A DNA stretch of 49,654 bases from an uncultured Alphaproteobacteria bacterium (GTDB taxonomy: Bacteria; Pseudomonadota; Alphaproteobacteria; RF32; CAG-239): assembly GCA_944391375.1 (NCBI GenBank), contig CALXTJ010000004.1, forward strand, positions 1 through 49,654, read 5' to 3'. Under the pieces are notes generated by a model. That model had not been told where the DNA came from. It did not search any database and saw only the letters and a list, made by a program, of their open reading frames with translations. A program made the translations under genes and the position numbers. Positions 7,785-49,654 of the stretch are shown one piece after another (the first letter of the stretch is position 1; each line of letters starts with the position of its first letter).

Positions 7785-10289
7785 TTAGCCGATTACGAGC
7801 TTGTCTTTATCGGCAGTTATCTTAACTTCGCTGTCATCTTTGATATCACCGTTTAAGAGCTTAATGGCGAGAGGATTTTCCACCTCTTGCTGAATAAGTC
7901 TTTTAAGAGGTCTTGCACCGAACTCTTTATCATAACCGTTTTCGGCAAGCCAGTTCAAGGCTTTGTCATCAAACTTTAAGGTTATGTGGTGATCATCCAA
8001 TCGTTTTTGCAAACGAGCCAGTTGAATTTCAACAATTTTTCTGATACTCTCCTTGCTAAGTGCATTAAAGACGATAATTTCATCCAAACGGTTAATAAAC
8101 TCCGGCCGGAAGAAACCTTTCAAGGCCTCACGCACATCCTTAACATTAGGATCGGCAATTAGGTTGGAAGTCATGATAAGAAAGGTATTTTTAAAATCTA
8201 CCGTTCTTCCCTGACCGTCGGTTAAACGACCGTCATCTAAAACTTGCAACAAAACATTAAACACATCCGGATGAGCCTTTTCCACCTCATCAAACAAAAT
8301 TACCTGATAAGGACGGCGTCTGACGGCTTCGGTTAAAACTCCGCCTTCATCGTATCCGACATATCCCGGAGGAGCACCGATTAAACGAGCAACGGAGTGC
8401 TTTTCCATATACTCGGACATATCAATTCTTAAGTAAGCGTTTTCCTCATCAAACAAGAACTCGGCCAAAGCCTTGGCAAGCTCGGTTTTACCGACACCCG
8501 TCGGACCTAAGAACAAAAATGAGCCTATCGGACGGTTCGGATCGCTTAAACCCGAACGCGAACGACGCACGGCGTTGGCCACGGCCGTAATGGCCTCATC
8601 TTGTCCGACAACGCGTTTGGCAATGGCGGTTTCCATATGGACCAGTTTTTCACGCTCGTTACTCATTAACTTGTCAACCGGAATTCCCGTCCATTTGGAA
8701 ACAACCTGAGCAATAACATCCGACGTAACGGTTTCTACGGCCGTATGTTCCTGAGCATGAGCGTTAATCTCGTTCAAGCGTTTTTCCAAATCCGGAATTT
8801 CTTTATATTGCAACTCTCCGGCTTTTTCGTATTGTCCGGCACGCAAAGCTTTATCAACCTCAATGCGGGCTTTATCCAAAGATTCACGGAGCTTTCCGGC
8901 TTCTTGAACGCTGCTCTTGCTGGCGTTCCATTTAGCATTTTCATCAGCCGATTCTTTTTCCAGCTCTTCAATTTCCTTTTCAATTTTTGCCAAACGCTCT
9001 TGGGAAGCCTTATCGGTTTCTTTCCGTAAAGCTTCGCGTTCAATTTTAAGCTGAATTAAGTGTCGGTCAATTTCATCCAAGTGTTCCGGCTTAGAGTCAA
9101 TGGCCATTCTTAAGCGGCTTGCGGCTTCATCAATAAGGTCAATAGCCTTATCGGGCAAAAATCTGTCGGTGATGTAACGATTAGACATTACCGCAGCAGC
9201 CACCAATGCGGCATCGGAAATTCTAACTCCGTGGTGCAGCTCATATTTTTCCTTAATACCCCGCAAGATGGAAATAGTATCTTCAACTTGCGGCTCATTT
9301 ACGAATACCGGTTGAAAACGACGAGCAAAGGCTTGGTCTTTTTCAATATATTTTTGATATTCTTTTAAGGTTGTGGCACCAATGCAGTGCAATTCACCGC
9401 GAGCCAAAGCCGGTTTTAACAAGTTGGAAGCATCCATGGAGCCCGATGTTGCACCGGCACCGACTACGGTGTGCATTTCATCAATGAACAATATAATTTG
9501 TCCGTTGGCGGCACTTACTTCTTGCAGCACGGCTTTTAACCGTTCCTCAAATTCACCGCGATATTTGGCTCCGGCAATAAGAGCACCCATGTCAAGGGCC
9601 ATCAAGCGTTTATGTTTTAAGCTTTCCGGAACATCACCGTTGACGATTCTTAAAGCCAACCCTTCAACAATGGCGGTTTTACCTACACCCGGCTCACCGA
9701 TTAAAATCGGGTTGTTTTTGGTTCGCCTGGAAAGTACCTGAATGGTATGTCTGATTTCCTCATCGCGTCCGATAACCGGATCAAGCTTACCTTGTGCCGC
9801 TCTTTCGGTATAATCGGTGGCATACTTTTTTAAGGCATCCATGGTATCTTCGGCAGTGGCACTCTGGGCGGTTCTGCCTTGCCGCATGTTGTTAATTACC
9901 TGATTAAGTTTTTTTAGGTCTACTCCATACGATTTGGCAGTTAATAAGGCCTGTAATATCCGCTCTACCGTTACAAATGAATCTCCGGCTTTAAGAGCGG
10001 TTTGTTCGGCCAAATCCAAAGCCTTAAAAAAAGCCTGCGAAGCCGAAATTTGTACCGAGTTCCCTTCAACTTTCGGGAGCTTGTCTACATCTTCATTAAC
10101 CTGCTCACGCACTTTTTCAACATCGGCACCGGTTTGGGCAATCAAGGACGAAGCCATACCTTCCTTATCATCCAGCATAACTTTAAGCAAGTGCTCAGGA
10201 GCCAAAAACTGGTTAGAATTTCTGGCGGCCAAAGATTGAGCAGCTTGAATAAAGCCTTGTGATCTGTCGGTTAATTTTTCCATATTCAT
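7785..10289 (-). CDS. clpB: ATP-dependent disaggregase ClpB
   Basis: Two AAA+ domains ([16 protein letters not shown]), KYRGEFEER, coiled-coil middle domain, GAPPGYVG. Confidence 0.97.
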
Positions 10290-35327: not shown

Positions 35328-37448
35328 ATGGCACAGACTTATTTAGAAACCAATACGGTTAATCACAATTACCAAGCAAACAGTTGCGAAAATATAGAGG
35401 CAGAGTTAGCCGCACAGGAAAAACACCTGCAGGATAATTTGTCGCGTATCCGGGAGGAGATGCTGAACGCCGGCGATAATGCCGAAAATTTAAAAGCCGA
35501 AGCTGCCGGTTATCGTAACATTTTAAAGCAGGTATATGAGGATAAAGCTTTGCTTGAAAAATATCCTGATGTTTTCCCATATTTATATTCGGTAAGGGAG
35601 CGAGGCAAGGCTGATGACATGGAAGGCAAATTTACCGAAGTTTTGCAGCAGGAAGGAGATATTATTACCGAAGTTCAAGACATAGCTCCGCAAGAAGAAA
35701 GGCTTGAATTAAGCTATGAGTTAGATGGTATACCGTTTAGCATATCGGCTGATCCGTACGATAAGCCCGGAGAAGATGAGCGTCAATTAAAAGGACGCAT
35801 AAGTTTTTCAAATAAGGCAATAGATGAGTTAAACGAGTCGCGTTTGAAAGCAATTTTGGAGTTTTGTGAAAAGAGAGGCCTGTCGGTATATGATTTAGAT
35901 ATTCCGATGAAAGACGGAGTAATAGATTTAGACGGCAAGCTTGCTGAATTAACCCAAAAGATTTTAGAGGAAAGAAAGTTACAAGATATAGAAAATCCGG
36001 GGGCCGGTCCGGAGGATGACAATCCCGAGCATTATCACACTCTTGAAACGGACGGACAAGGTGCGTTATCGGCAGTTGACGGGGCAATGATAGCAGGTAC
36101 GAACGGTAAGCCTCAAAAGAAGGCACCGCCCAAACCTGTAGAGTTTGGTGATCTTCGTCAAGAATTGATAGATATGCTTGAAAAAGACATGAAGAAGACG
36201 CGTGGGTTGAGTTATTTTGAAACCACGCAGACCATTAAAGGTGTTCGTTTAAAGGTATTCAGCATTTACGACAAACCTGATGCCGACAACATGAAAAAAG
36301 ACGGCGTTAAAGACAAGAACGGCATTTATGTTCCGACCTACAGCCACCGTTTATACATGGGGCAAGATCCCAAAGACGGTCATTTTGTGTTCGGTTACTC
36401 TACACCTAACAGTAAAAAAATGGACGATACAATGGCCGGAGACTTTATGGGTATTGTTAAAAAAACGGGAGCCACGCATGTTCGGTTTTCAGATTTACAA
36501 AATTTGGATAAAGGAGTATGGATGGTAGCCTGTGCGGAGAAAGGTTTGGTCCCGATAGGCATAAGCATCAATCAGGCCAAAGCGGTTATGATGGTAGAGG
36601 CGGCTCGTAAAAAGTTAAGTAGTGAGGATTTTAACCTATTCAAGAAGCGTTTAGGAGAGCAATTATTAGAAAATGCCGCAAAGAAAAACGGTTCGGATAA
36701 GAAGTACTTTGGTTTGCCGAAATCGGAATATGACTACATTCAAAATTTGAAGAAGGGATATGAATTTGGTAACTTCAAAGATGCTTATGAAGATGACGGA
36801 GGACTGTACACCACCACCTTACATAAAATTGAAGAAGGGGCGGCCGACAGCAAAGAAGGGGCGGCTACAACCTTTGGTGCTATGGGTACATTAAGAGATG
36901 TGTTTGATATTTATATGAAGTATCAGCATGAAACATTCGGTTGTTTTTTGGAGCAAGGTACTTCCGGTCGTCGTCAATTTACCAAAGAAGAATTGGAAGC
37001 ATTAAAAGCCATACCGGCCAACAAGCCGATGATGGAATTGAGCAAGGCGGATTTTATGACCATTTACAGTGTGTTGTTGCCGCGTCGTATAGAAGATGCC
37101 AAGAAGGACATATACGAAGCCTACAAGCGTGAATTGAAGCGGAATCCGAAGCGAGCCGACGGTGTTATTTTGGGCAGCGATGTTTTCCCCAGATACAAAT
37201 CGGAAGTCAACGGCATTAACATTTATCTGACGCGTAACGGTATAGATACTTTAACCTTACCTAACGAACATAACGGTTTGGAATTTGCCCGACCGGAACA
37301 GTTACAGCCTGGAGCCCAAAACACGCAGCAACAGTCCCAAAACACGCAGCAAGATAAGCAAAACAACGAGGGCAAAGCCAAAGTCAACAACAATAGCGGG
37401 AATGCAGCGGTAAATGCCCAAGCTCAAAACTCTGCCAATAGCAGGTAA
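35328..37448 (+). CDS. Hypothetical 706-aa hydrophilic protein with Q/N-rich tail
   Basis: Long ORF with GGAG SD and its own promoter and terminator; no family recognised. Confidence 0.85.
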   Translation: MAQTYLETNTVNHNYQANSCENIEAELAAQEKHLQDNLSRIREEMLNAGDNAENLKAEAAGYRNILKQVYEDKALLEKYPDVFPYLYSVRERGKADDMEGKFTEVLQQEGDIITEVQDIAPQEERLELSYELDGIPFSISADPYDKPGEDERQLKGRISFSNKAIDELNESRLKAILEFCEKRGLSVYDLDIPMKDGVIDLDGKLAELTQKILEERKLQDIENPGAGPEDDNPEHYHTLETDGQGALSAVDGAMIAGTNGKPQKKAPPKPVEFGDLRQELIDMLEKDMKKTRGLSYFETTQTIKGVRLKVFSIYDKPDADNMKKDGVKDKNGIYVPTYSHRLYMGQDPKDGHFVFGYSTPNSKKMDDTMAGDFMGIVKKTGATHVRFSDLQNLDKGVWMVACAEKGLVPIGISINQAKAVMMVEAARKKLSSEDFNLFKKRLGEQLLENAAKKNGSDKKYFGLPKSEYDYIQNLKKGYEFGNFKDAYEDDGGLYTTTLHKIEEGAADSKEGAATTFGAMGTLRDVFDIYMKYQHETFGCFLEQGTSGRRQFTKEELEALKAIPANKPMMELSKADFMTIYSVLLPRRIEDAKKDIYEAYKRELKRNPKRADGVILGSDVFPRYKSEVNGINIYLTRNGIDTLTLPNEHNGLEFARPEQLQPGAQNTQQQSQNTQQDKQNNEGKAKVNNNSGNAAVNAQAQNSANSR

Positions 37449-37463
37449 GTGATTGATGTAAAC

Positions 37464-37494
37464 AAAAAAAACGCCCTTGATGGGCGTTTTTTTT
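37464..37494. terminator. Bidirectional terminator
   Basis: AAAAAAAACGCCC-ttgat-GGGCGTTTTTTTT. Confidence 0.85.
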
Positions 37495-37506
37495 GCAGCG
37501 GATTTC

Positions 37507-38229
37507 CTATACATCCCATACAAAGGTAAGATAACAAGAGCTTTTTTGATCGCACACTTTACAAGCCTCTGCAAAATCATTAAGAGTTAAATTTTTACAA
37601 CATAGCAGATTGGGATTGCTACAATAAGTATCTCCGTAACATTTATAGGAATATGTGGTGGTAGATGAGGAGCTTTCTTGATTAGATATGGCTATATAGC
37701 TTAATTCAGGGCTATAGCTAAGGGCGTTTTGATAAAGATTTTGGCATACCTCAAAAGAATTATTATTAAGTAACTGGTAGAGCATCGCTGTTTCGCTAAA
37801 ACTTGGGGCGTAGTTGTTTCTTAAAGTTATGGTTGAACCGAAAACATCCTGCAGGGTACCATCACTTTGCACCATATCTTCAGGTATTAACCCCATTTTG
37901 ATGTAATAAGGAGTTAGGCTAGTAAGTTTATCAAATTTCCATTCATGCCGATATTGGCTCATGATGCTAAAAAGATTATTAACCTGATCGGCCTGTTTGT
38001 TGAGTTTGTACTTCATCATGGCCTTAGAGTAACCGGCAATGGCTCCAACCGATAAAACGCCGATTATGGCCAGAACACCTAACATTTCCACCATACTTCT
38101 TCCGGAAAAAGTCGCATCTACTTGCAATTTTGCTCCTCGTGTACCTCTTATTGTACACTTCGTCGCAAAATAGCGGCGTATCTGCACCCTTTTGCGGAAG
38201 AAAGACCGTTTAAGTTCATTAAATTTCAT
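37507..38229 (-). CDS. Type IV pilin-like protein (copy A) with extended leader
   Basis: SG|RSMVEMLGVLAIIGVLSVGAIAGY class III signal (E at +5), DVFG motif, Cys-rich C-terminus. Confidence 0.85.
   Translation of the reverse strand: MKFNELKRSFFRKRVQIRRYFATKCTIRGTRGAKLQVDATFSGRSMVEMLGVLAIIGVLSVGAIAGYSKAMMKYKLNKQADQVNNLFSIMSQYRHEWKFDKLTSLTPYYIKMGLIPEDMVQSDGTLQDVFGSTITLRNNYAPSFSETAMLYQLLNNNSFEVCQNLYQNALSYSPELSYIAISNQESSSSTTTYSYKCYGDTYCSNPNLLCCKNLTLNDFAEACKVCDQKSSCYLTFVWDV
38097..38202. repeat. ~106-bp imperfect palindromic element (RPE/MITE-like) inserted in frame in the pilin A leader
   Basis: Nested inverted repeats TTCTTCCG/CGGAAGAA, AAAAG/CTTTT, TTTTGC/GCAAAA, GTGTAC/GTACAC; the leader is 36 codons longer than in paralog B. 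Confidence 0.75.
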
Positions 38230-38321
38230 AAAACATCTCCAAAAAAATTAGTAAAAAGAGCTTTAAACGAAATCTTAAACCGTTTTTTTTTTTGCAATTT
38301 TAAAGTTAAACCGGTGGATAA
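38221..38321 (-). promoter_or_regulatory. Pilin promoter cassette copy A: TTGCAA-(A-tract, 14-bp spacer)-TAAGAT
   Basis: Near-identical to 48878-48980; T11 run at 38283-38293 on the + strand. Confidence 0.75.
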
Positions 38322-38342
38322 CAAAGTGCTCAACCGATGAGG

Positions 38343-38625
38343 TCACTGTCCGAAAGAGGCCGTGTTCTTATTCAAAGTATATATGCTCCTGTCTTCTTTA
38401 CGGTTGTAAAATGTATTCTATGTTGACCAAGCTTTCTTTATCATAAGTGTTGTAGGCTTGTAATACTTTTCTATCCAAATAAACCGGAAATACCGCCCTT
38501 AAAGTGTTTTCTATCCTTCTGGAAAACGAATTTTGAAATGCCGCCGAAGTAATAATGTTGGCCACCATAATGCTGCCATCCTTTAAATGCTCCTTTACCA
38601 TCATGAAAAAGAAGTCGGGCAGATA
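38343..38625 (-). pseudogene. 5'-truncated, frameshifted remnant of a spermidine-synthase-like (SAM-fold) gene
   Basis: DFFFMMVKEHLKDGSIMVANII...VNIEYI, then a shifted frame YNRKEDRSIYTLNKNTASFGQ*; no proper 5' half. Confidence 0.45.
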
Positions 38626-38754
38626 AGAAAATTCATCTCTGACAACTTAGGCAAAGAAAACTTAGCCGTATTTGATTCGCTTTGGGTAGGCAAAAATGAT
38701 GAACGAGCCGTACAAATCGCTCAAATGCAGTCTTTTATCAATAAGGGAAGATAA
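38610..38754 (+). pseudogene. Possible 3' remnant of a second gene (...IRKFISDNLGKENLAVFDSLWVGKNDERAVQIAQMQSFINKGR*)
   Basis: Protein-like open frame ending at TAA 38752-38754, without a convincing start. Confidence 0.35.
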
Positions 38755-38823
38755 TAATTATCCTTTACCGACAGATAGTGTTTTTTTACCGATTAAAAAG
38801 TGCGTTTTATCAAGAGAATGTGC

Positions 38824-38852
38824 TTGCAAATTAAAAAAAAATGGTGTAAAAA
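38824..38852 (+). promoter_or_regulatory. Putative rpoBC promoter
   Basis: TTGCAA-17 bp-TAAAAA with TG upstream of the -10. Confidence 0.5.
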
Positions 38853-39088
38853 CTTTGCAAAATAAAAGCCTATTATTTGGTGAATCTGGTCCGAGTTTGG
38901 CTCTATGCCTAGGGGTTCGGCCGATTCGGCCGTATTTTTTTGCGTTTGTAAAAATGCTTAAAAAATATGTAAAAAACGTTTTTTATATTAACCTTCTGTT
39001 TGCGGGGTTTGGTGTTGCTTGTTAAAGCCAAGATAATGCCGATAGAATGGCTGCAGAATTATAGCTTAAAGAAAAGGATAAAAGTGCA

Positions 39089-42000
39089 ATGAAGGAATCT
39101 TATACGAGCAAAAGACGTGTAAGGAAAAACTTCGGTAAAATTGATGCATGCATTGATATGCCGAGTTTAATTGAGGTTCAAACCGGTTCTTATTCCAGTT
39201 TTATCAATAATGTTGATGCATACGGAGAGCATTGCGAATTCGGTTTGGAAGAAGTGTTCAAATCTATTTTCCCGATAAAAGATTTTTCCGGTAACGGCGA
39301 ATTGGAATTCGTTAAATACGAATTGGAAGAGCCTAAATACGATGTTGATGAGTGTATCAAACGCGATATGACTTATGCTGCACCGATTAAGGCTACTTTG
39401 CGTTTGGTAGTTTGGGATATTGACGAGGCTACCGGAGCCAAATCCGTTCACGATATTAAAGAACAAGATGTTTATATGGGCGATATTCCGTTGATGACCG
39501 ATAAAGGTACCTTTATTTTCAACGGTACCGAGCGTGTAGTTGTTTCCCAAATGCATCGTTCCCCGGGTGTGTTCTTTGATCATGACAAAGGCAAGACCAT
39601 GTCTTCCGGTAAATATTTGTTTGCGGCCCGTGTTATTCCGTATCGCGGTTCATGGCTTGATTTTGAGTTTGATGCCAAAGACTTGATTTATGCCCGTATT
39701 GACCGTCGTCGTAAATTGCCGGTAACATCCATTTTGTATTCTTTGTACTCCAAAGAAACCGAAGATCGTATCAAAGCCGGCGAAAAAGTTCCTGCCGAAG
39801 AAATTAAAGGCATGGATAAAGAGGAAATTTTAAATTACTTCTATGAAGCCGACGAATATATTGCCAACAAAAAAGGCTGGAAAGTTAAATTTAATCCCGA
39901 ACGCATGAAGGGTGTTAAATTCCCGTTTGATTTGGTAGATGCCAAAACCGGTAAAGTGGTTTGGGCTCAGGATAAAAAAATTACCCCGAGAACAGCCAAT
40001 AAATTGGTTGAGGACGGCTTGGAATACTATCAGGTTTCTGAGGAACAGCTGTATGGCAAGTTTTTGGCCAAGGCTGTTTTCAATGCCAAAACCGGTGAAA
40101 TTATTGCCGATGCCGGAGCTGAATTAAATGAAGAAGTTTTAGGCAAAATCAATGAAGCCAAAGTTAAAGAATTGAGCATTTTGTACATTGACGGCGTTAA
40201 TGTCGGACCTTATATCCGCAACACTTTGGAAGCTGATAAAAATCACTGCCGCGAAGAGGCTTTGCTGGATATCTACCGCGTTATGCGTCCCGGCGAACCG
40301 GCCACATTAGATGCTTCTTACCATCTGTTTAAGGCTTTGTTCTTTGATGAAGAGCGTTACGATTTATCGTCGGTCGGTCGTGTTAAAATGAACTTGGCTT
40401 TGGACATTCCTTTTGAGGAAGCTCCCGATACATATCGCACCTTGCGTAAAGATGATATTTTGCGTATTGTTAAACATATGATAGAATTGCGTGACGGTAA
40501 GGGCGAAGTTGATGATATTGACCACTTAGGTAATCGTCGTGTTCGTTCGGTCGGTGAGTTGATGGAAAATCAATATCGTATGGGCTTGCTTCGTATGGAA
40601 AGAGCCATTCGCGAAAAAATGAGTGCCGAAGTCTTAAACAATGTTAAACCGCAAGACTTGGTAAATGCTAAGCCGATAGCTTCGGTTATCAGAGAATTTT
40701 TCGGTTCTTCACAACTTTCGCAATTTATGGATCAAAACAACCCGTTGTCGGAAATTACCCACAAGCGTCGTTTATCGGCCTTGGGCCCCGGCGGTTTGTC
40801 TCGTGACAGAGCCGGCTTTGAAGTCCGCGATGTGCACCCGACACACTACGGTCGTATCTGCCCGATTGAAACTCCTGAAGGTCCGAACATCGGTTTAATT
40901 AACTCTTTGGCAACTTATGCCCGCATTAACAAATACGGCTTTATTGAATGTCCGTATCGTAAAGTTATTGACGGAGTTGTTACCAAAGATGTGGTATATT
41001 TGTCAGCCGATGAAGAAAGTAAATACATTATCGCCGAAGCTAACGCCAAAGTAAATGATGACGGACGCTTTGCTAACGATATGATTGCCTGCCGTAAAGC
41101 CGGTGAAGTTATTTATGCGGCACCTTCGGAAATTAACTTAATTGACGTTTCGCCAAAACAATTGGTTTCGGTTGCAACCGCTTTGATTCCGTTCTTGGAA
41201 AACGACGATGCTAACCGTGCGTTGATGGGTTCAAACATGCAGCGTCAAGGTGTTCCGTTGTTAAGAAGCGAAGCTCCGCTCGTCGGTACCGGTATTGAAG
41301 CAACCGTTGCCAAAGATTCCGGTGCTACATTGGTAGCTAAATATGACGGTGTTGTAGATTCGGTTGATGCCAACCGTATCGTTATTCGTTCCGATGATCG
41401 TCATGCCAGCAAGGTCGGTGTTGAAATTTATCGTTTGCAAAAATTCCGTCGTTCCAACCAAAACACCTGCATTAACCAAGTTCCGCTTGTTAAGGTAGGC
41501 GATAAAATTAAGGCCGGCGATATTATTGCCGACGGTCCTTGTACCGATATGGGTGAGTTGGCCTTAGGCAAAAATGTTTTGGTAGCATTTATGCCCTGGA
41601 ACGGATTAAACTACGAAGATGCTATTTTGTTATCCGAACGCATTTCTCGTGATGATGTTTTAACCTCCCTTCACATTGAAGAATTTGAGGTTATGGCTCG
41701 TGATACCAAATTAGGTCAGGAAGAAATCACTCGTGATATTCCCAATGTCGGTGAAGAAGCTTTACGCAACTTGGATGAAGCCGGTATTGTTTACATCGGA
41801 GCTGAGGTTAAAGCCGGTGATATTTTGGTAGGTAAAGTAACACCTAAAGGAGAATCTCCGGTAACTCCCGAAGAAAAATTGTTAAGAGCCATCTTCGGTG
41901 AAAAAGCCAGTGATGTTCGCGACACCTCGTTGCGTGTACAACCCGGTATTGAGGGTGTTGTGGTAGATGTTCATGTATTCTCCCGCAGAGGTGTAGAAAA

Positions 42001-43255
42001 AGATGAACGTGCTTTGTCTATTGAACAACAGGAAATTTCGCAATTGGCCAAAGACCGTGATGATGAAATTGCCATCGTTCGCAAGAGCTTTGATGCCCGC
42101 TTAAAAGAAATGTTAATCGGACAAACGGTGGTAGATGCCCCCAAGGGTATTGATAAAAAGGCTACCATCACTGCCGAAATGTTGGATGGTATTCCGTCCT
42201 CACAATGGCGTAAGATTGTAGTCAAAGATGAGAGCGTTATGGCTCAGATTGAAGAATTTTCGGCCGCTTTTGATGAAAGAGTTGCCAAAGTTCATAAGCA
42301 CTTTGACGACAAAGTAGAAAAAGTACAACGCGGTGATGATTTATTGCCCGGTGTATTAAAGATGGTAAAAGTCTTTATAGCCACCAAGCGTAAGATGCAA
42401 ACCGGTGATAAAATGGCCGGTCGTCACGGTAACAAAGGTACGGTATCCCGCGTATTGCCGTTAGAGGATATGCCTTACATGGAAGATGGTACGTCGGTAG
42501 ATATCGTATTAAATCCTTTAGGTGTTCCTTCTCGTATGAATGTGGGACAAATTTTGGAAACTCACTTAGGTTGGGCTGCCAAAGAGCTCGGCAAGCAATT
42601 AAACGAGATGTGCGAACAATACAAGAAGGGTGAAAAGACAATTGAGGAATTAAACAACCGCTTGCGTGAAATTTACGGCGACAAGCAGTACAAAGCCGAA
42701 ATTGAACCCTTAACCGAACCTGAAAAAATGGAAATGATATCCAACCTGAAAAACGGTATTCCGATGGCAACGCCGGTATTTGACGGAGCCAGCGGCGAAG
42801 ATATCAACCATATGCTGGAAATGGCCGGTTTACCGACCTCAGGTCAAATTGACTTGTACGATGGTCGTACCGGTGAAAAGTTTGATCGTAAGGTAACCGT
42901 AGGTATCATTTACATGATTAAGTTGCACCACATCGTAGATGAAAAGATGCACGCCCGTTCGGTAGGACCTTACAGTCTTGTAACTCAACAACCGTTAGGC
43001 GGTAAAGCTCAATTCGGCGGACAACGTTTCGGTGAAATGGAAGTTTGGGCATTGCAAGCTTACGGTGCAGCCTACACCTTGCAGGAAATGCTCACGGTTA
43101 AATCCGATGATGTCAACGGCCGAACCAAGGTTTATGAAGCCATCGTTCGCGGTGAAGACACATTTGATACCGGAGTACCGGAATCATTTAATGTTTTGGT
43201 AAAAGAAATGAAGTCTTTGTGCCTTAATGTTGAAATGTTGAACGAAGAAGTTTAA
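39089..43255 (+). CDS. rpoB: RNA polymerase beta subunit
   Basis: [54 protein letters not shown]. Confidence 0.99.
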
Positions 43256-43275
43256 GGATAAGGAGTTTTATAAAT

Positions 43276-46200
43276 ATGAATGATGTAATGAAATTTTTTG
43301 GTCAGCAGCCGGCTGAAGAGAGTTTTGATGAAATCAAGATTTCTATAGCTTCTCCTGAGCAAATTCGTTCTTGGTCATACGGTGAGGTTAAAAAGCCCGA
43401 GACCATTAACTATCGTACATTTAAGCCGGAAAGAGACGGTCTGTTTTGTGCCCGTATTTTCGGTCCTGTTAAAGATTACGAATGTTTGTGCGGTAAATAT
43501 AAACGCATGAAATATCGTGGTATCGTATGCGAAAAGTGCGGTGTTGAAGTAACATTGTCCAAAGTTCGTCGTGAAAGAATGGGCCATATTGAATTGGCAG
43601 CACCGGTTGCTCACATTTGGTTTTTAAAATCATTACCGAGCCGTATTTCAATGTTGACCGATATTCCGATGAAGTCATTGGAAAGAGTGCTGTACTTTGA
43701 AAGCTATATTGTAATTGAACCGGGTTTAACCGATTTACAAATGCACCAATTATTAACCGAAGACGAATATCAAGAGGCTTTGGATAAATACGGTGAAGAT
43801 TCGTTTAGAGCCGGTATCGGTGCCGAGGCTTTGCGTGAAATTTTGGCCGCCATTGATTTGGAAGCCGAACGTGCCACGATGCGTGCCGAATTAAAAGAAA
43901 CCAATTCGGAAGCCAAACGCAAAAAGTTGGTAAAACGTTTAAAGATTGTTGAATCGTTTATAGATTCCAACACCAAACCGGAATGGATGATTTTAACGGT
44001 ATTGCCGGTAATTCCGCCGGAATTGCGTCCGTTGGTACCGTTAGACGGCGGTCGTTTTGCCACATCGGATTTGAACGATTTGTATCGTAGAGTAATCAAC
44101 CGTAACAACCGTTTGAAAAGATTGTTGGAATTACATGCTCCGGAAATTATCGTTCGTAACGAAAAGAGAATGTTGCAAGAGTCGGTTGATGCCTTGTTTG
44201 ATAACGGTCGCCGTGCTCGTGCCATTACCGGAACCAGTAAGCGTCCGTTGAAATCGTTATCGGATATGCTCAAAGGTAAGCAAGGTCGTTTCCGTCAAAA
44301 CTTGTTAGGTAAACGTGTTGACTACTCCGGTCGTTCGGTTATTACCGTAGGTCCGGAATTGAAGTTGCAACAATGCGGATTGCCTAAAAAGATGGCCTTG
44401 GAGTTGTTTAAGCCGTTCGTATATTCCAAATTGGAATTGTACGGACACGCTACAACCATTAAAGCTGCCAAAAGAATGGTAGAAAAAGAGCGTCCGGAAG
44501 TATGGGATATTTTGGAAGAAGTGATAAGAGAGCATCCGGTATTGTTAAACCGTGCTCCTACTTTGCACCGTTTGGGTATTCAAGCATTTGAGCCGGTACT
44601 TGTGGAAGGTAAAGCCATTCACCTGCACCCGCTGGTTTGTACGGCATTTAACGCCGACTTTGACGGTGACCAAATGGCAGTACATGTACCGTTATCCATT
44701 GAAGCTCAATTGGAAGCTCGTGTCTTGATGATGTCAACCAACAACATTTTATCGCCGGCATCCGGTAAGCCGATTATCGTTCCTTCACAAGACATGGTAT
44801 TAGGTATCTACTACTTAACTTATGAAGCCGATGATGTAATGGGCGAGGGCGGAATTTACGCCGATGCCGATGAGGTAATGTTGGCCTTAAACGCCAAAGT
44901 TGTAGACTTGCATGCTAAAATCAAGTGCCGTATGGAATATGTTGACGACAACGGCGAGACCAAATATGGCTTGGTAGATACCACTCCGGGTCGTATTATC
45001 GTTTCCGACATTTTGCCCAAGAATCCGAACATACCGTTTTCTTTGGTAAACCGCTTGTTAAAGAAGAAGGAAATTTCGGAAATCATTGACACGGTATATC
45101 GTCATTGCGGCCAAAAAGAAACCTGCATCATGGTAGATAAAATCATGACCTTAGGCTTTACCAATGCATGTAAGGCAGGTATTTCGTTCGGTAAGGATGA
45201 TTTGATTGTACCTGATGCCAAGAAGACCTTAATTGAAGAAACCACCAAACAGGTAAAAGAGTTTGAAGCACAATATCAAAACGGTTTAATCACGAAGGGT
45301 GAAAAATATAACAAAGTGGTAGATATTTGGGCAGCCTGCACTGACAAGATTGCCGATGAAATGATGAAAAACATTTCCAAGACCGACCATGGTTATATTA
45401 ACTCCGTATACATGATGGCACACTCCGGAGCTCGTGGTTCTGCTGCTCAAATGCGTCAATTGGCAGGTATGCGTGGTTTGATGGCCAAACCGAGTGGTGA
45501 AATTATTGAACAACCGATTATTTCCAACTTTAAGGAGGGATTAACGGTGTCTGAGTACTTTAACTCCACCCACGGTGCACGTAAGGGTTTGGCCGATACG
45601 GCATTAAAGACCGCCAACTCCGGTTATTTAACGCGTCGTTTGGTAGATGTAGCCCAAGATGTTGTGGTAACGGAAACTGATTGTGGAACCGAGAGAGGCA
45701 TTATAGTTCGTCCGGTAGTTGACGGAGGTAATGTAATTGTTTCCATCGGTGACAGAATTTTGGGACGAACCATTCAAGAAGATATTATCCACCCCGAAAC
45801 CGGTGAAGTTTTGGTTAAAAAGGGTAAGCTGATTGATGAAAACGATGCCGAATTGGTAGAAAAAGCCGGTGTTGAGCAAGTTAAGATTCGTTCGGTATTA
45901 ACCTGTGATTCCGAGCATGGTGTATGTGCGGCATGTTATGGTCGTGACTTAGCCAGAGGAACTCCGGTTAATGTAGGTGAAGCGGTAGGCGTAATTGCCG
46001 CTCAATCCATCGGTGAGCCCGGTACGCAATTAACGATGAGAACCTTCCACATCGGTGGTGCGGCTTCCAAGTCTGCCGAGCAATCCAGTGTTGAAGTACC
46101 GTTTGCCGGTGTTTTGAAATTGGACAACAAACATACGATAACCGATTCTGAAGGTCATTTGATTGTTTTATCGCGTAACTGTGAAATTATCATAGAAGAT

Positions 46201-47475
46201 GCCCAAGGTCGTGAAAAATCGCGTCACCATGTTCCTTACGGTACCAAAATTTTGGTAGAAGAAGGAGCCAAAGTTAAGAAAGGTCAAAAAGTTGCCGAGT
46301 GGGATCCGTTTACGATTCCGGTCATTTCGGAAAAAGCCGGTACGGCTCAACTGGTAGACTTGATTAACAATGTTTCGGTAAAAGAGAGCATGGATGAAAC
46401 GACAGGTATTGTATCTAAAGTTGTAATAGATTGGCGTAGCGGCTCATCGGCCAATGCTTCGTTAAAGCCGAGCATTGTTTTAAAAGATGCCAAAGGCAAG
46501 TCTGTCAACTTTGATAACGGCAAGGAAGCCCGTTATTATCTGTCGGTAGATGCGGTATTAACGGTAGACAACGGCAGTGAGGTTAAGGTAGGTGATGTAA
46601 TCGCTCGTATTCCGAGAGAGAGCTCCAAGACCAAAGATATTACCGGTGGTTTACCGCGAGTTGCCGAATTGTTTGAAGCTCGTCATCCTAAGGATCAAGC
46701 ACTCATTTCCGATATTGACGGTATGGTAGAGTTTGGTAAGGATTACAAGGCCAAACAACGTATAAGCGTTATACCGGCCAAAGGCGAACCGATTGAATAT
46801 TTAATTCCGAAGGGTCGTCACCTGGTAGTACAAGACGGCGATATTGTTAAAAAAGGTGATTTACTGGTAGAAGGCACACCTGCACCGCATGATATTTTAA
46901 GAGTATTGGGTGTAGAAAAGTTAGCTGAATACTTAGTAAAAGAAGTTCAAGATGTATATCGTCTGCAAGGTGTTAAAATCAACGATAAGCACATTGAAGT
47001 GATAGTATCGCAGATGCTCAAGAAAGTTGAGATTAAGACGCCCGGAGATACAACCTTCTTGGTAGGCGAGCAGGTAGACAAGGATGTATTTGAGGCAGAA
47101 AATGCTAAGGTGATAGCTGAAAACGGAGAACCGGCAACGGCAGATCCGGTATTGTTAGGTATTACCAAGGCCTCATTGCAGACCAAGTCGTTTATATCTG
47201 CGGCCTCATTCCAAGAGACCACGCGTGTCTTGACGGAAGCGGCAGTTGCCGGCAAGGTAGACAAGCTGACCGGATTGAAGGAAAATGTAATTGTCGGTCG
47301 TTTAATTCCGGCCGGTACCGGTACGGTATTGCGTTCATTGCGTAGAGTTGCAGCCCAAAACGACAAAGAGATTTTGGCTCAACGGGAAGCAGAAGCCAAT
47401 GCCAAATTAGCAAGTGCCAACAGCAACACCGAAGCGGAAAAACCCGTTACGGCGGAAGAAACTCCGGCTGAATAG
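43276..47475 (+). CDS. rpoC: RNA polymerase beta' subunit
   Basis: [12 protein letters not shown], Zn-finger [23 protein letters not shown]. Confidence 0.99.
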
Positions 47476-47490
47476 CTTAAATTAGCAACT

Positions 47491-47526
47491 AAAAACCCTC
47501 GCTTTAGCAATAAGGCGAGGGTTTTT
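47491..47526. terminator. Bidirectional terminator after rpoC
   Basis: AAAAACCCTCGCTTTA-gcaa-TAAGGCGAGGGTTTTT. Confidence 0.85.
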
Positions 47527-47559
47527 GTTTGGATTAAAGTAAACTTATAAAATCATCTG

Positions 47560-48273
47560 GGCTCTTGACTAGTATCTTTTAAGAAGATAGGGTTAAAGGC
47601 AATGAAATACAATAGATTAAGCAGATATAAAATAAAAAAAATAATAGTGTGTTTTTCTGAGGACATAACAGCGACCTCGGCAAGTAAAATTTTAGGCATA
47701 AACAGGAACACCATAAATTCGTATTATAACGAATTCAGAGAACGCATATTAGAAGAAAGTTTGCTAGAACAAGAGAAAGAGTTAGGAGAATATGAGCTTG
47801 ACGAAAGCTATTTTGGAGCAAGAAGAATAAGAGGTAAAAGAGGACGAGGAGCAGCCGGAAAGACACCTGTTTTTGGATTATTGAAAAGGAATGGAAAAGT
47901 ATTTGTCAGTGTTGTTCCCAACTGTTCAAAAGAAGAGCTAATGCCCATAATACAAGGAAAAATCTTAGAAGGAAGCACTATTCATACAGATGGATGGAGA
48001 GCTTATGATGGTCTTATTTTGAATGGATATAATCATTACAGAGTGTTTCATCATGAGAATGAATTTGCTAGAGGAAAATCTCATGTAAATGGGATAGAAT
48101 GTTTTTGGAGTTATGCAAAAAGAAGAATGGCTAAATTTAATGGTTTGACTGACGACAAATTCATCTTGCATTTAAAGGAGTGTGAGTGTAGATTTAATCA
48201 TAGAAATGAGAATTTTGCATCCTTCATTGAGCATATTTTTTTCAAAAATAAAAAAAGATACTAGTCTAGAGCC
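47560..48273 (+). mobile_element. IS1595-family insertion sequence (IS1016-like group), 714 bp
   Basis: 21-bp terminal IRs GGCTCT(T/A)GACTAGTATCTTTT with 1 mismatch; 7-bp target duplication TCATCTG at 47553-47559 and 48274-48280. Confidence 0.92.
47602..48264 (+). CDS. IS1595-family (ISXO2-like DDE) transposase
   Basis: HTH, ELDESYFG, GKRGRGAAGK, IHTDGWRAY, HVNGIECFW, LKECECRFN. Confidence 0.95.
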   Translation: MKYNRLSRYKIKKIIVCFSEDITATSASKILGINRNTINSYYNEFRERILEESLLEQEKELGEYELDESYFGARRIRGKRGRGAAGKTPVFGLLKRNGKVFVSVVPNCSKEELMPIIQGKILEGSTIHTDGWRAYDGLILNGYNHYRVFHHENEFARGKSHVNGIECFWSYAKRRMAKFNGLTDDKFILHLKECECRFNHRNENFASFIEHIFFKNKKRY

Positions 48274-48886
48274 TCATCTGATAATAAAAAATGCAAATGT
48301 CTTTGTCTTCGCAAACGTTACAAAAGTCTTCCATTTCAGCAAGGGTTAAATCTTTAAGGCATTTACGGTCAGATGTGCAATAATTATCGCCATTAACTAT
48401 GTTGGCCGAGGAATTTTCTTCACCTTTGGTTGTTTCAAACTTGGTACGCCAAAGTTGCTCTCTTTTGGCTTTAGCGATTGTAAATAAATTCATGCACGAT
48501 TCTTTTTGTCCTTTATTCAAGTATGTCATAAACTCAAAGGTATAACCGCCATCGCCGCCAGTGTAATTTTTTAAAGCTATAGTAGTGCCGAAAACATCAA
48601 ATATTACATCATTTATGTTTTCGCGTATCATTTCTTGCGGGATAACGTTTAATTTTTTAAGTATAGGTACCATATTTTCGGCAATAGAAGTTTTTGAGCG
48701 CTTAAAATCGTCCATATGAATGTTGACGTAGTCTAAAATCGAGCCGATTTGTTCGGTCTGTTTATTGAGTTTATACTTCATCATGGCCTTGGAATAACCG
48801 GCAATAGCCCCGACAGACAGTACGCCTATGATTGCAAGTACGCCAAGCATTTCCACCATGGAACGACCTGATTGATAAAATTTCAT
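48266..48886 (-). CDS. Type IV pilin-like protein (copy B)
   Basis: MKFYQSG|RSMVEMLGVLAIIGVLSVGAIAGY, DVFG, GDNYC..C..LTL..C..C..C; GGAGG SD. Confidence 0.88.
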   Translation of the reverse strand: MKFYQSGRSMVEMLGVLAIIGVLSVGAIAGYSKAMMKYKLNKQTEQIGSILDYVNIHMDDFKRSKTSIAENMVPILKKLNVIPQEMIRENINDVIFDVFGTTIALKNYTGGDGGYTFEFMTYLNKGQKESCMNLFTIAKAKREQLWRTKFETTKGEENSSANIVNGDNYCTSDRKCLKDLTLAEMEDFCNVCEDKDICIFYYQMRL

Positions 48887-48980
48887 TTAAAACCTCCAAA
48901 AAAATTAGTAACAAAAGCTTTAAACGAAATCTTAAACCGTTTTTTTTTTTTTGCAATTTTAAAGTTAAGCCGGTGGATAA
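48878..48980 (-). promoter_or_regulatory. Pilin promoter cassette copy B: TTGCAA-(A-tract, 16-bp spacer)-TAAGAT
   Basis: Near-identical to 38221-38321; T13 run at 48940-48952 on the + strand. Confidence 0.75.
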
Positions 48981-49045
48981 AATAAAGTTACATCAAGTAT
49001 CGCACATACAAGTAAAGTAACCTTGTCAAAAATGTAGATGTTGCT

Positions 49046-49654
49046 TTAAGAACTTATTCTTCCCCAAAGAATGGAAAAATTACAATAGCTTTTTGAACTA
49101 TCACAAGTAGAACATAAATCATCTATCTCGGATAGCGTCAAGTCCTTAATGCACTTCAGGTTATCTCCACAATAGGTGTCTCCAAATGTTCTGTTACCGT
49201 ATTGTGTGCTACCGTCTTCTTTATCTTTGGTAAACATTACTTGCCACAAACCGGCTGAACGTAATTGTGCCATTTGATATAAATTCATGCATATTTCATG
49301 AGCATCTTTGTCCAAAGATATTTGTAATCCATAATATATATTATAAGTATCATCGTTTAAAAAAGGCCAAACAGCATTTCCGAAAACATCTTTTACATAA
49401 CCGGTGTCAGCCGAATTTTCAACTATCATTTCAACAGGAATGGCTCCTAATTTTTGCAATAGAATACCAAAATTCATGGAAAAATCATGAGTAAATTTAT
49501 CGGAATTGATGGTGACATAGTCTAAAATGCTGCCGATTTGTTCGGTTTGGCGATTAAGTTTATATTTCATCATGGCTTTGGAATAACCGGCAATAGCCCC
49601 GACAGACAGTACGCCTATGATTGCAAGTACGCCAAGCATTTCCACCATGGAACG
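49046..49654 (-). CDS. Type IV pilin-like protein (copy C), 5' end beyond the window edge
   Basis: ..RSMVEMLGVLAIIGVLSVGAIAGYSKAMMKYKLN, same Cys pattern as copies A and B. Confidence 0.88.
   Translation of the reverse strand, partial: RSMVEMLGVLAIIGVLSVGAIAGYSKAMMKYKLNRQTEQIGSILDYVTINSDKFTHDFSMNFGILLQKLGAIPVEMIVENSADTGYVKDVFGNAVWPFLNDDTYNIYYGLQISLDKDAHEICMNLYQMAQLRSAGLWQVMFTKDKEDGSTQYGNRTFGDTYCGDNLKCIKDLTLSEIDDLCSTCDSSKSYCNFSILWGRISS

Follow-up and report, generated by a model that had tools for sequence, protein, structure and literature searches.

The 49,654 bp contig CALXTJ010000004.1 (GenBank assembly GCA_944391375.1), from an uncultured alphaproteobacterium of the chicken gut (GTDB lineage RF32; CAG-239), is analyzed here at its full length and is referred to as the window; it is contig C4 of a 1.33 Mb genome (G000) that is assembled in 73 contigs and is 97% complete. 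Three minus-strand open reading frames (ORFs) in the window, at 37507-38229, 48266-48886 and 49046-49654 in the ORF listing, encode putative type IV pilins, designated copies 1, 2 and 3. The rpoB and rpoC genes are located between copies 1 and 2. The pilin loci contain the following features; leader types and the class 2 designation are explained below.

37507..38229, minus strand: pilin copy 1 (class 2), a 240-residue prepilin with a 43-residue leader ending in Gly and a 197-residue mature protein
38104..38229, minus strand: long 'type A' leader of copy 1; a hairpin-forming insert lies in frame between MKF.. and Gly-1
38230..38321, minus strand: promoter and 5' untranslated region module of copy 1, with TTATCCACC..AAAATTGC, an A run, CGGTTTAAGAT.. 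and GGAG; A11 at 38283-38293
37469..38781, no strand: strain-variable segment containing copy 1, defined by contig joints in public runs and by absence from five sister species
48266..48886, minus strand: pilin copy 2 (class 2), a 206-residue prepilin with a 7-residue leader (MKFYQSG) and a 199-residue mature protein
48887..48980, minus strand: promoter and 5' untranslated region module of copy 2; A13 at 48940-48952
49046..49654, minus strand: pilin copy 3 (class 2), in tandem with copy 2, its 5' end cut by the contig end at residue +1; 202 residues visible

All three ORFs have an identical string of 34 residues, RSMVEMLGVLAIIGVLSVGAIAGYSKAMMKYKLN, after Gly-1. Further along they keep IP.[DE]M (as IPEDM, IPQEM and IPVEM), DVFG in all three, C.NL (as CQNL, CMNL and CMNL), and a tail of the form GD.YC...C.K.LTL...C..C...C, while the rest has diverged to an overall identity of 41-52%. 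Judged from the sequences, chance cannot account for this sharing of motifs. Copies 1 and 2, which are both complete, possess their own GGAGG ribosome-binding site and start codon and have an upstream module in common. As a first-pass annotation of this DNA had stated, no pilus assembly genes are nearby: the window has none, and the matches to T2SSE, T2SSF, secretin and Peptidase_A24 in this genome are all on contigs C1 and C48.

A large pilin family in small genomes

A six-frame scan of the genome identified 30 ORFs with the pilin N-terminus, all of them open; 28 are cysteine-rich (class 2), and two, on contigs C8 and C11, end in ..VAWKYY (class 1). The first-pass annotation had described three paralogs with an exactly shared N-terminus and a set of conserved motifs; the sharing is borne out but the number is not, the three being part of a set of 30 ORFs with this N-terminus, 28 of them cysteine-rich. 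The count of 28 is itself a lower bound, because 22 of the 146 contig ends fall within pilin promoters or N-termini. A separate search of the same genome returned 34 matches to the family. A 5'-truncated C-terminal class 2 remnant lying directly downstream of another copy (C45:9808-9927) is the sole clear fragment seen.

In a survey of 41 genomes, the 11 other genomes of the genus contain 57, 61, 76, 44, 77, 77, 76, 2, 53, 76 and 76 matches, and those of G003, G005, G006, G007 and G010 are lower bounds, since 76 were scored of 86-106 candidates. Ten of the 11 therefore have 44 to at least 77 matches, and the sister genomes are only 1.3-1.6 Mb in size. Other genera of the same taxonomic family have 1-84 matches per genome, and two of 16 genomes outside it match. 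With the profile of a 35-sequence alignment (A1; 26 sequences from this genome and nine from relatives), 105 matches were found in G013, a 1.5 Mb genome of another genus, and 22 in G024. Counted genome-wide, the dispersed repertoire that the first-pass annotation proposed is not a matter of a few copies, with about 30 in this genome and 44 to about 100 in relatives.

One genome of the genus, G008, has two weak matches to the family only (E 2.7e-18), which are probably class 1, and it appears to be without class 2. Class 1 heads are present in all 24 other genomes of the taxonomic family, including G008, at one to seven copies each except for 25 in G015. When the head alone was searched against 1.84 billion representatives (50% identity), 243 clusters came up at E <= 0.001 and 66 at E <= 1e-10. 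The sole named homologue is a 'hypothetical protein' of an Alphaproteobacteria metagenome-assembled genome, a label it carries because the curated models narrowly miss class 2. Large prepilin-like families occur in Elusimicrobia and Planctomycetes, and a literature search, with supplements outside its reach, turned up no account of the present family or of any expansion of type IVb pilins.

Class III signal and predicted fold

In a class III signal, as set out in a review (PMC4471445), the leader ends in Gly, and the stretch behind it, about 21 residues long and mostly hydrophobic, is broken by Glu at +5. All 30 ORFs contain G|RSMVEMLGVLAIIGVLSVGAIAG, which fits this signal in its Gly-1, its Glu+5 and its hydrophobic helix. 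In alignment A1, in which Gly-1 is counted as position 1, G1, E6 and most of the hydrophobic helix are invariant in all 35 sequences. Positions 1-29, D91, C125, G160 and C183 are almost invariant, C164 and C170 occur in 90% or more of the sequences, and a further Cys pair is found in a subset only.

An AlphaFold model computed from A1 (predicted local distance difference test, pLDDT, 84.8; predicted template modelling score 0.77) has the fold of a type IVb major pilin, in agreement with the pilin fold that had been anticipated for these ORFs. Foldseek returned six matches at E <= 0.001, all of them type IVb pilus subunits: five TcpA chains of 8uhf and one chain (9iuf_A) from enterotoxigenic Escherichia coli (ETEC). 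The best is TcpA 8uhf_E (E 5.5e-5; TM 0.60/0.63), and the next matches are S. Typhi PilS (3fhu; 1.8e-3), followed by CofA (3s0t) and TcpA (3hrv). The constant part is the alpha-1 helix and the variable part is the globular head, as the first-pass annotation had it. At the level of sequence the resemblance is slight; class 2 is 13-15% identical to type IVb major pilins, and a family-profile sequence search of solved structures gave nothing significant (TcpA, E 0.63).

The class 1 model (pLDDT 76.4) matches 9iuf_A at 2e-7, and class 1 scores above the Pfam cut-offs for PilS (53 bits) and Bundlin (PF05307; 48-52 bits). A profile-profile alignment of class 2 with class 1 has a probability of 99.95 over 143 columns, and because class 1 is itself conserved across the taxonomic family, class 2 is a diverged and expanded offshoot of a conserved type IVb pilin. 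The predicted fold and the machinery described next place class 2 among the type IVb major pilins, as divergent members that work in the same way.

The assembly machine

Contig C1 has, at 21.7-33.1 kb, on one strand and in this order, genes for a TcpQ/PilL-like protein, a secretin, PAP_PilO, an unassigned coiled-coil protein, an ATPase, a platform protein and a Bundlin/PilS-like (pilin-like) protein; domain matches in the cluster include PF06864 (9.4e-20), PF10671 (1.6e-17) and PF00263 (3.9e-16). The T2SSE ATPase is 554 residues long and the T2SSF platform protein 371, and a second ATPase of 319 residues is encoded on the opposite strand. Matches to T2SSF are confined to one ORF in the genome, and there is one Peptidase_A24 gene (C48:1932-2633; 233 residues, no further domain detected). 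The machinery that the first-pass annotation had proposed to locate (pilB/C/D, the ATPase, platform and peptidase) is thus present, on C1 and C48. The cluster has what we take to be the gene order of the R64 thin pilus, and resembles the R64/ColIb-P9 pil operon (PilL-PilV) both in this presumed order and in having a type IV secretion system adjacent to it. Of 61 genomes of the taxonomic family, 44 have PAP_PilO, the low-copy genomes G008, G014 and G018 among them; the machine is therefore ancestral and the pilin expansion lineage-specific. It is very probable that the class 2 proteins are pilins handled by the C1 machine.

The pilin-like gene within the cluster (C1:22748-23416, minus strand; 222 residues) has matches to Bundlin (6e-5) and PilS (0.0018). 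Inspected by eye, its N-terminus does not have the Gly/Glu+5 class III motif, and it may be a degenerate or anchored pilin. The adjoining type IV secretion genes (C1:33500-58700) include TrbC/VirB2-like genes, two VirB8 genes, CagX/VirB9 and a T2SSE-family ATPase. The same region encodes a 1206-residue protein with beta-flower, DUF3659 and RHS-repeat matches, and a 1522-residue protein with no Pfam family.

Selection on the N-terminus and the heads

Over residues 1-30 the mean proportion of synonymous differences (pS) is 0.68 (325 pairs among 26 copies from this genome) even though the protein is invariant, and the corresponding non-synonymous value (pN) of 0.07 is owed to the six-fold Ser and Arg codons; the Gly-Arg-Ser codons, for example, vary between copies as GGTCGTTCC or GGAAGAAGT. 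Synonymous sites are therefore near saturation and the N-terminal protein is maintained by purifying selection rather than by homogenization, which rules out gene conversion as the source of the invariant N-terminus. This constraint argues that all copies are likely to be used by the same peptidase and the same machine.

The heads of paralogues in this genome have a median identity of 25% (range 17-80%). The ratio of non-synonymous to synonymous rates (dN/dS) in the heads is 0.13-0.26 in six of the 14 closest paralogue pairs, those in which dS is unsaturated, and 0.17-0.39 for orthologues of copy 2; no gene-wide positive selection on the heads was seen in these comparisons. In the cluster of copy 2 orthologues (106 relatives) the variation is in loops at about 58-66, 83-88, 95-116, 145-159 and 165-168, and the helices and Cys motifs are conserved. 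The comparison of dN/dS by domain that the first-pass annotation had called for thus finds N-terminus and heads both under purifying selection, and its term 'hypervariable' for the heads is misleading, since they are anciently diverged and each is constrained (dN/dS 0.13-0.39).

Turnover of the repertoire between species and strains

In G003, G005, G006, G007 and G010 a 706-residue gene that flanks copy 1 and rpoB are about 200 bp apart, with no counterpart of the 1.39 kb (37449-38838) that holds copy 1. We also compared the window with public runs (24 were available, all as contigs and not as raw reads). In two chicken-gut runs, X3 and X11, contigs connect 37468 to 38782 through 49 other letters; X3 has additionally a contig with copy 1, and a contig of X6 has 658 other letters in the place of copy 1. 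A search with the head of copy 1 (residues 80-240) of a collection of 5.8 billion proteins, which requires shared 5-residue words, returned only its own 99% cluster among 18 candidates. The pilins are thus not a set of fixed one-to-one orthologues, since five sister species and some strains do not have copy 1.

Copy 2 has syntenic orthologues downstream of rpoC in G005, G006 and G003, with DNA identities of 93.0%, 90.4% and 86.1% against 82.5%, 82.4% and 81.7% for the adjoining end of rpoC, and with stretches of more than 100 identical bases. Relative to G005, copy 2 has a head dS of 0.13, an N-terminal pS of 0.67 and a different type of promoter. The combination of a low head dS with a diverged N-terminus and promoter points to a head that was recently exchanged between species, the breakpoint lying close to where the head starts. 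Between G001 and G002, only two pairs have downstream DNA that is at least 90% alike over at least 450 nt, in a comparison of 30 x 30 promoter loci out of 58 and 48 promoter sites.

The extreme 3' end of copy 2 is overlapped by an insertion element:

47560..48273, plus strand: IS1595-family insertion element with 21-nt terminal inverted repeats; PF12762 at 2.3e-28
47602-48264, plus strand: transposase ORF of this element, 220 residues

The element overlaps the last codons of copy 2, and the C-terminal residues of copy 2 differ from those of the orthologues. It is missing from contigs of X3 and X6, in which 47552 is joined to 48274. X11 has no cover of 47550-48393, and only a joint from 47475 to 48972, across an undefined interval, hints that copy 2 is missing or replaced there.

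Promoter modules and the A run

A module of about 95 nt lies upstream of 14 of the 18 copies in this genome that have at least 300 nt of upstream DNA. It consists of TTATCCACC..CTTTAAAATTGC, an A run, CGGTTTA[AG][GA]AT.. and GGAGG, followed by ATG. Of the 28 homopolymers of 10 nt or more in the genome, 25 are A runs of this module, three of these in degenerate modules; the other three homopolymers are at C21:14, C53:5819 and C59:4012. Fifteen of the runs are A12, three are A11, three are A13, and A10, A14, A15 and A19 occur once each.

The relatives use variants of this arrangement. Promoters in G005, G006, G007 and G010 have ATATTGC, A10, CGCGAGC and TAAAAT, those in G001 and G002 have A12, CGGTT and TA[AG]AAT, and G009 has A11; in G024, run lengths from A7 to A12 are distributed across 12 copies with otherwise near-identical modules. 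The A run lies between TTGC and TAnnAT in every promoter type seen, and the distance between these two is held at 17 nt because the flank compensates for the run (5 nt follow A12, and 7 nt follow A10). Pattern sites number 58 in G001 (A9-A14, mode 12) and 48 in G002 (A9-A13, mode 12), and are estimated at about 95 each in G005 and G007 (mode A10 with some A9; none with a reversed-pattern control), a figure corrected for the double listing of reverse-strand sites. Two of three orthologous pairs between G001 and G002 differ by one A (13 versus 12, and 10 versus 11).

Switching by the length of a homopolymeric promoter spacer is described for vlp, maa2 and vmm in PMC2268961, and the runs found here suggest that slipped-strand switching may occur in the pilin promoters as well. 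That the A run acts as an on/off or rheostat switch is a tentative proposal that we consider somewhat more likely to be wrong than right, as several points count against it. The third G001/G002 pair has A12 in both genomes, and the promoters of the copy 2 orthologues in G005, G006, G010 and G007 all have A10. The modal spacer is only 15 nt if the -35 element is TTGCAA, and a TAAAAT just upstream of the run, if used as an alternative -10 element, would place the run at the 5' end of the transcript. Contigs of an RNA library, X17, span the run at 48898-48940, which is weak evidence since DNA carry-over or read-through is possible. The genome encodes MutS and MutL, which also rules out loss of mismatch repair as an aid to slippage. 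In G013, with about 100 copies, there are seven hits to the A-run pattern, and other upstream modules were present in 12 loci viewed. A related precedent is also negative: according to PMC2268961, the promoter T-tract of M. agalactiae vpma plays no switching role.

In the comparison with the public runs, the depth of the indel rows at 38282 and 48940 is in the hundreds to thousands, whereas the local depth is 10-40; these rows therefore stem from paralogous promoters and are uninformative for one locus. Exact-pattern scans of metagenome contigs of the Joint Genome Institute for strain-level run lengths gave 0 matches. X17, in which the organism is scarce, has no cover of the window pilin heads and is thus uninformative on expression. 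A sigma-54 promoter was considered because TTGCA is present, and was rejected because there is no GG at the required 10-nt distance. An Rfam search of six loci found no family at the A-run promoter.

Leaders and leader RNA

Fourteen of the 28 class 2 copies have short leaders of the 7-residue kind (MKFYQSG and similar), two of them cut by contig ends, and 13 have an in-frame insert, of type A or type B, between the MKF.. start and Gly-1; the one further copy is cut. Type A leaders are 43-49 residues long and intact type B leaders 64; contig ends truncate four of the type B copies. Within this genome both inserts are restricted to pilin leaders. They are predicted to form hairpins of -65.1 kcal/mol (z -8.15) for type B and -34.6 kcal/mol (z -2.95) for type A; examples of such elements are at 38104-38229 of the window and at L011:2062-2247. 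In the cluster of copy 2 orthologues 51 of 114 leaders have 6-10 residues and 63 have 21-77. The long ones are made of repeated, translated palindromic modules that vary among near-identical heads, and the G005 and G006 orthologues differ in this respect, suggesting that the cleaved leader tolerates or exploits mobile palindromes. The inserts are reminiscent of the Rickettsia palindromic elements, hairpin repeats that lie in frame within ORFs of a small-genome alphaproteobacterium, but differ from them in being confined, in this genome, to cleaved pilin leaders, and no relatedness in sequence has been seen so far.

Most class 1 genes are preceded by a structured leader RNA that is conserved, and so are two class 2 genes of this genome (C6:20573 and C10:13477) and many G013 class 2 genes. 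It occurs at C11:~10000-10120 (L030:1354-1436), at L025:1367-1450, in L020, and in the relatives' loci L063-L069, L071 and L074. Its layout is a 9-bp closing stem with two inner hairpins, a terminator-like hairpin, a U run and a ribosome-binding site. Compensatory changes occur at nine of 20 predicted pairs among 12 sequences, and in Rfam only sub-threshold matches to sRNA-Xcc1 were found (31-35 bits against a gathering score of 53). It looks like a candidate riboswitch or attenuator.

Discussion

We propose that the three window ORFs belong to a family of alternative genes for type IVb major pilins, very large and specific to this lineage of uncultured gut Alphaproteobacteria with small genomes, and this is the reading that we think probable. 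The prepilin leader would be removed after Gly-1 by the single prepilin peptidase, and the invariant alpha-1 helix would admit every paralogue to one R64/Tcp-like machine and pack in the core of the filament. The head of about 160 residues, presumably held by conserved cysteines, differs from paralogue to paralogue, so that use of one or another as the major subunit would change the exterior of the pilus. Each gene has its own promoter module, which in this genus has a slippage-prone A run near or inside the core promoter, and the copies are probably switched or tuned singly. Gain, loss, replacement and between-species recombination of heads would remodel the repertoire. On balance we expect the repertoire to serve surface or adhesion variation; the subunits may be used interchangeably for antigenic, phage-receptor or host-range variation, as the first-pass annotation suggested.

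The class 2 proteins resemble TcpA of Vibrio cholerae, the CofA/LngA-type pilins of ETEC, PilS of Salmonella Typhi and R64, and BfpA in predicted fold, in a mature size of about 200 residues, in a residue other than Phe at +1, and in Glu+5. As in TcpA, there is one Cys in mid helix and another near the C-terminus (A1 positions 125 and 183), at a spacing close to what we take to be that of the TcpA disulphide. Unlike TcpA, CofA, PilS and BfpA, class 2 has Arg at +1, an extra Cys pair (164/170) and a third pair in a subset. Also unlike these pilins, each encoded by one gene inside an operon, the genes described here number from tens to about 100 per genome and are dispersed away from the assembly operon.

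Several observations weigh against the class 2 proteins being major pilins. Prepilin leaders are put at 6-26 residues in PMC4471445, and many of the leaders exceed this, with 43-64 residues here and up to 77 elsewhere. Class 2 falls below the curated cut-offs for N_methyl (best score 16.7 versus 21.2 bits) and TIGR02532 (best score 15.4 versus 16.3), which are detection thresholds and not biological criteria, and below that for PilS (PF08805; copy 2, 18.4 versus 22 bits). Arg is unusual at residue +1. Finally, the actual major subunit could be class 1, which is conserved and low in copy number.

The last point leads to the alternative that survives best, in which class 2 is a fixed toolkit of accessory, minor or co-polymerizing pilins with conserved binding roles, operating under ordinary regulation beside class 1 and with a static A run. 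We regard this as unlikely, with the following in its favour: purifying selection on each head (dN/dS 0.13-0.39), syntenic orthologues of the copy 2 head (93% in G005 and G006; 77-88% in G003, G010 and G007), the presence of class 1 in 24 of 24 other genomes of the taxonomic family with scores above the PilS and Bundlin cut-offs, A10 in all four orthologous promoters seen, and the expansion in G013, which is mostly without the A-run promoter and in which many copies have the riboswitch-like leader. However, a length of 197-202 residues and a TcpA-like fold resemble those of major pilins, the type IVb minor pilins TcpB, CofB and PilV being much larger. Copy number ranges from none found (G008) to about 100 inside one genus, copies are present or absent within a species, and the run length differs among near-identical modules.

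A second alternative, in which the pilin-like N-terminus is an export or anchor signal and the heads are displayed or released, as in the archaeal bindosome, is improbable. According to PMC4471445, proteins that carry class III signals need not form pili, and the sub-threshold scores with the curated pilin models and the unusual Arg at +1 could be read in the same way. The whole protein, however, models as a type IVb major pilin with best matches from assembled filaments (8uhf, 9iuf), and Glu+5 and the full hydrophobic helix are invariant in all 35 aligned sequences.

Variation of type IV pili is known to arise by gene conversion from silent cassettes, by DNA inversion and by glycosylation. 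The family has in common with Neisseria pilE/pilS one pilus machine, a constant N-terminal helix and stored variable heads, and with the PilV shufflon the principle that specificity is determined by alternative C-terminal parts joined to a constant N-terminus. A cassette system of either type, with donor copies feeding one expression site or with inversion of DNA, could be guided by the common N-terminal coding block, and the separate histories of head and 5' end in copy 2 (dS 0.13 against pS 0.67) and the differing leader types of orthologues are in its favour. We nevertheless consider it very improbable. Unlike those of Neisseria, and as the first-pass annotation had noted, the copies are full genes with start codon, leader and promoter: all 16 copies with complete upstream DNA have their own start codon, ribosome-binding site and upstream module, the N-terminal DNA is not homogenized (pS 0.68), and there is no single expression locus, which rules out Neisseria-like silent cassettes. 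Only one 5'-truncated remnant, that on C45, was seen. Neither window locus has inverted repeats bracketing its promoter or head, which speaks against a shufflon or invertible promoter such as those of R64 PilV and Moraxella, a recombinase not having been searched for. Variation in R64 results from Rci-mediated inversion within one pilV encoding a large adhesin, whereas here it comes from many whole genes, whose variable product corresponds to a major pilin in both size and fold.

A further alternative, a largely neutral or selfish expansion in which the promoter-leader-N-terminus module spreads as a repeat and many copies are unused, draws on the in-frame palindromic leader inserts, the copies at 22 of 146 contig ends and the insertion element beside copy 2, but it is highly unlikely given 30 of 30 ORFs open, head dN/dS far under 1, an N-terminus invariant in protein despite saturated synonymous sites, and retention of the family in genomes of merely 1.3-1.6 Mb.

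Returning to a family of alternative major pilins, the closest regulatory parallel is Mycoplasma hyorhinis vlp (and also maa2 and vmm), with complete genes that each have their own promoter with an A run whose length varies between copies or orthologues. Unlike those lipoproteins, the products here are type IV pilins, there are up to about 100 genes, and switching is only proposed. An extended form of the idea is a 'contingency pilus', in which up to about 100 major-pilin genes, each switchable on its own, would supply a single type IVb machine. Rapid and reversible changes would act on each gene in two layers, A-run slippage and the gain or loss of leader hairpins, with heads traded between co-resident species. 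This is speculative, and we doubt that it holds in full; if true, a gut bacterium of 1.3-1.5 Mb would devote about 5% of its genome to pilus surfaces shared by the community. Because the assembly cluster parallels the R64 thin pilus and has type IV secretion genes next to it, which partner cell or host surface is engaged may depend on the pilin in use, much as it depends on the PilV shufflon in conjugation.

Tens to about 100 complete, separately promoted major-pilin genes would constitute a different strategy of pilus variation, nearer to the surface-lipoprotein families of mycoplasmas. The family is found in abundant, uncultured gut Alphaproteobacteria of almost unknown biology, is invisible to current annotation, and disrupts short-read assemblies. 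It offers a tractable test bed for one machine accepting many subunits and for selection on gut pilus surfaces by immunoglobulin A, phages and adhesion niches, as well as for homopolymers and in-frame leader palindromes as gene switches.

Neighbouring features

Apart from the pilins, rpoB and rpoC, the 20 largest ORFs in the window have housekeeping functions and include the genes for pyruvate kinase, AdhE, ClpB, ATP synthase and PriA. One further feature adjoins the pilin loci:

37463..37495, no strand: hairpin with perfect 14-nt arms (100% complementary inverted repeat), a 5-nt loop and A/T runs on both sides

Situated between copy 1 and the convergent 706-residue gene, this hairpin looks like a bidirectional terminator. 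The 706-residue ORF itself (35328-37448) has no Pfam family and has a Gln/Asn-rich tail with a 21-nt tandem repeat at 37315-37356, of which run X6 has one additional unit; it is 64-68% identical in DNA to its counterparts in sister species, compared with 84-85% for rpoB. On the other side of copy 1, within the strain-variable segment, about 500 nt (38330-38838) include a 68-residue ORF (38398-38604) with no Pfam match, and a contig of the X17 RNA library covers 38328-38568.

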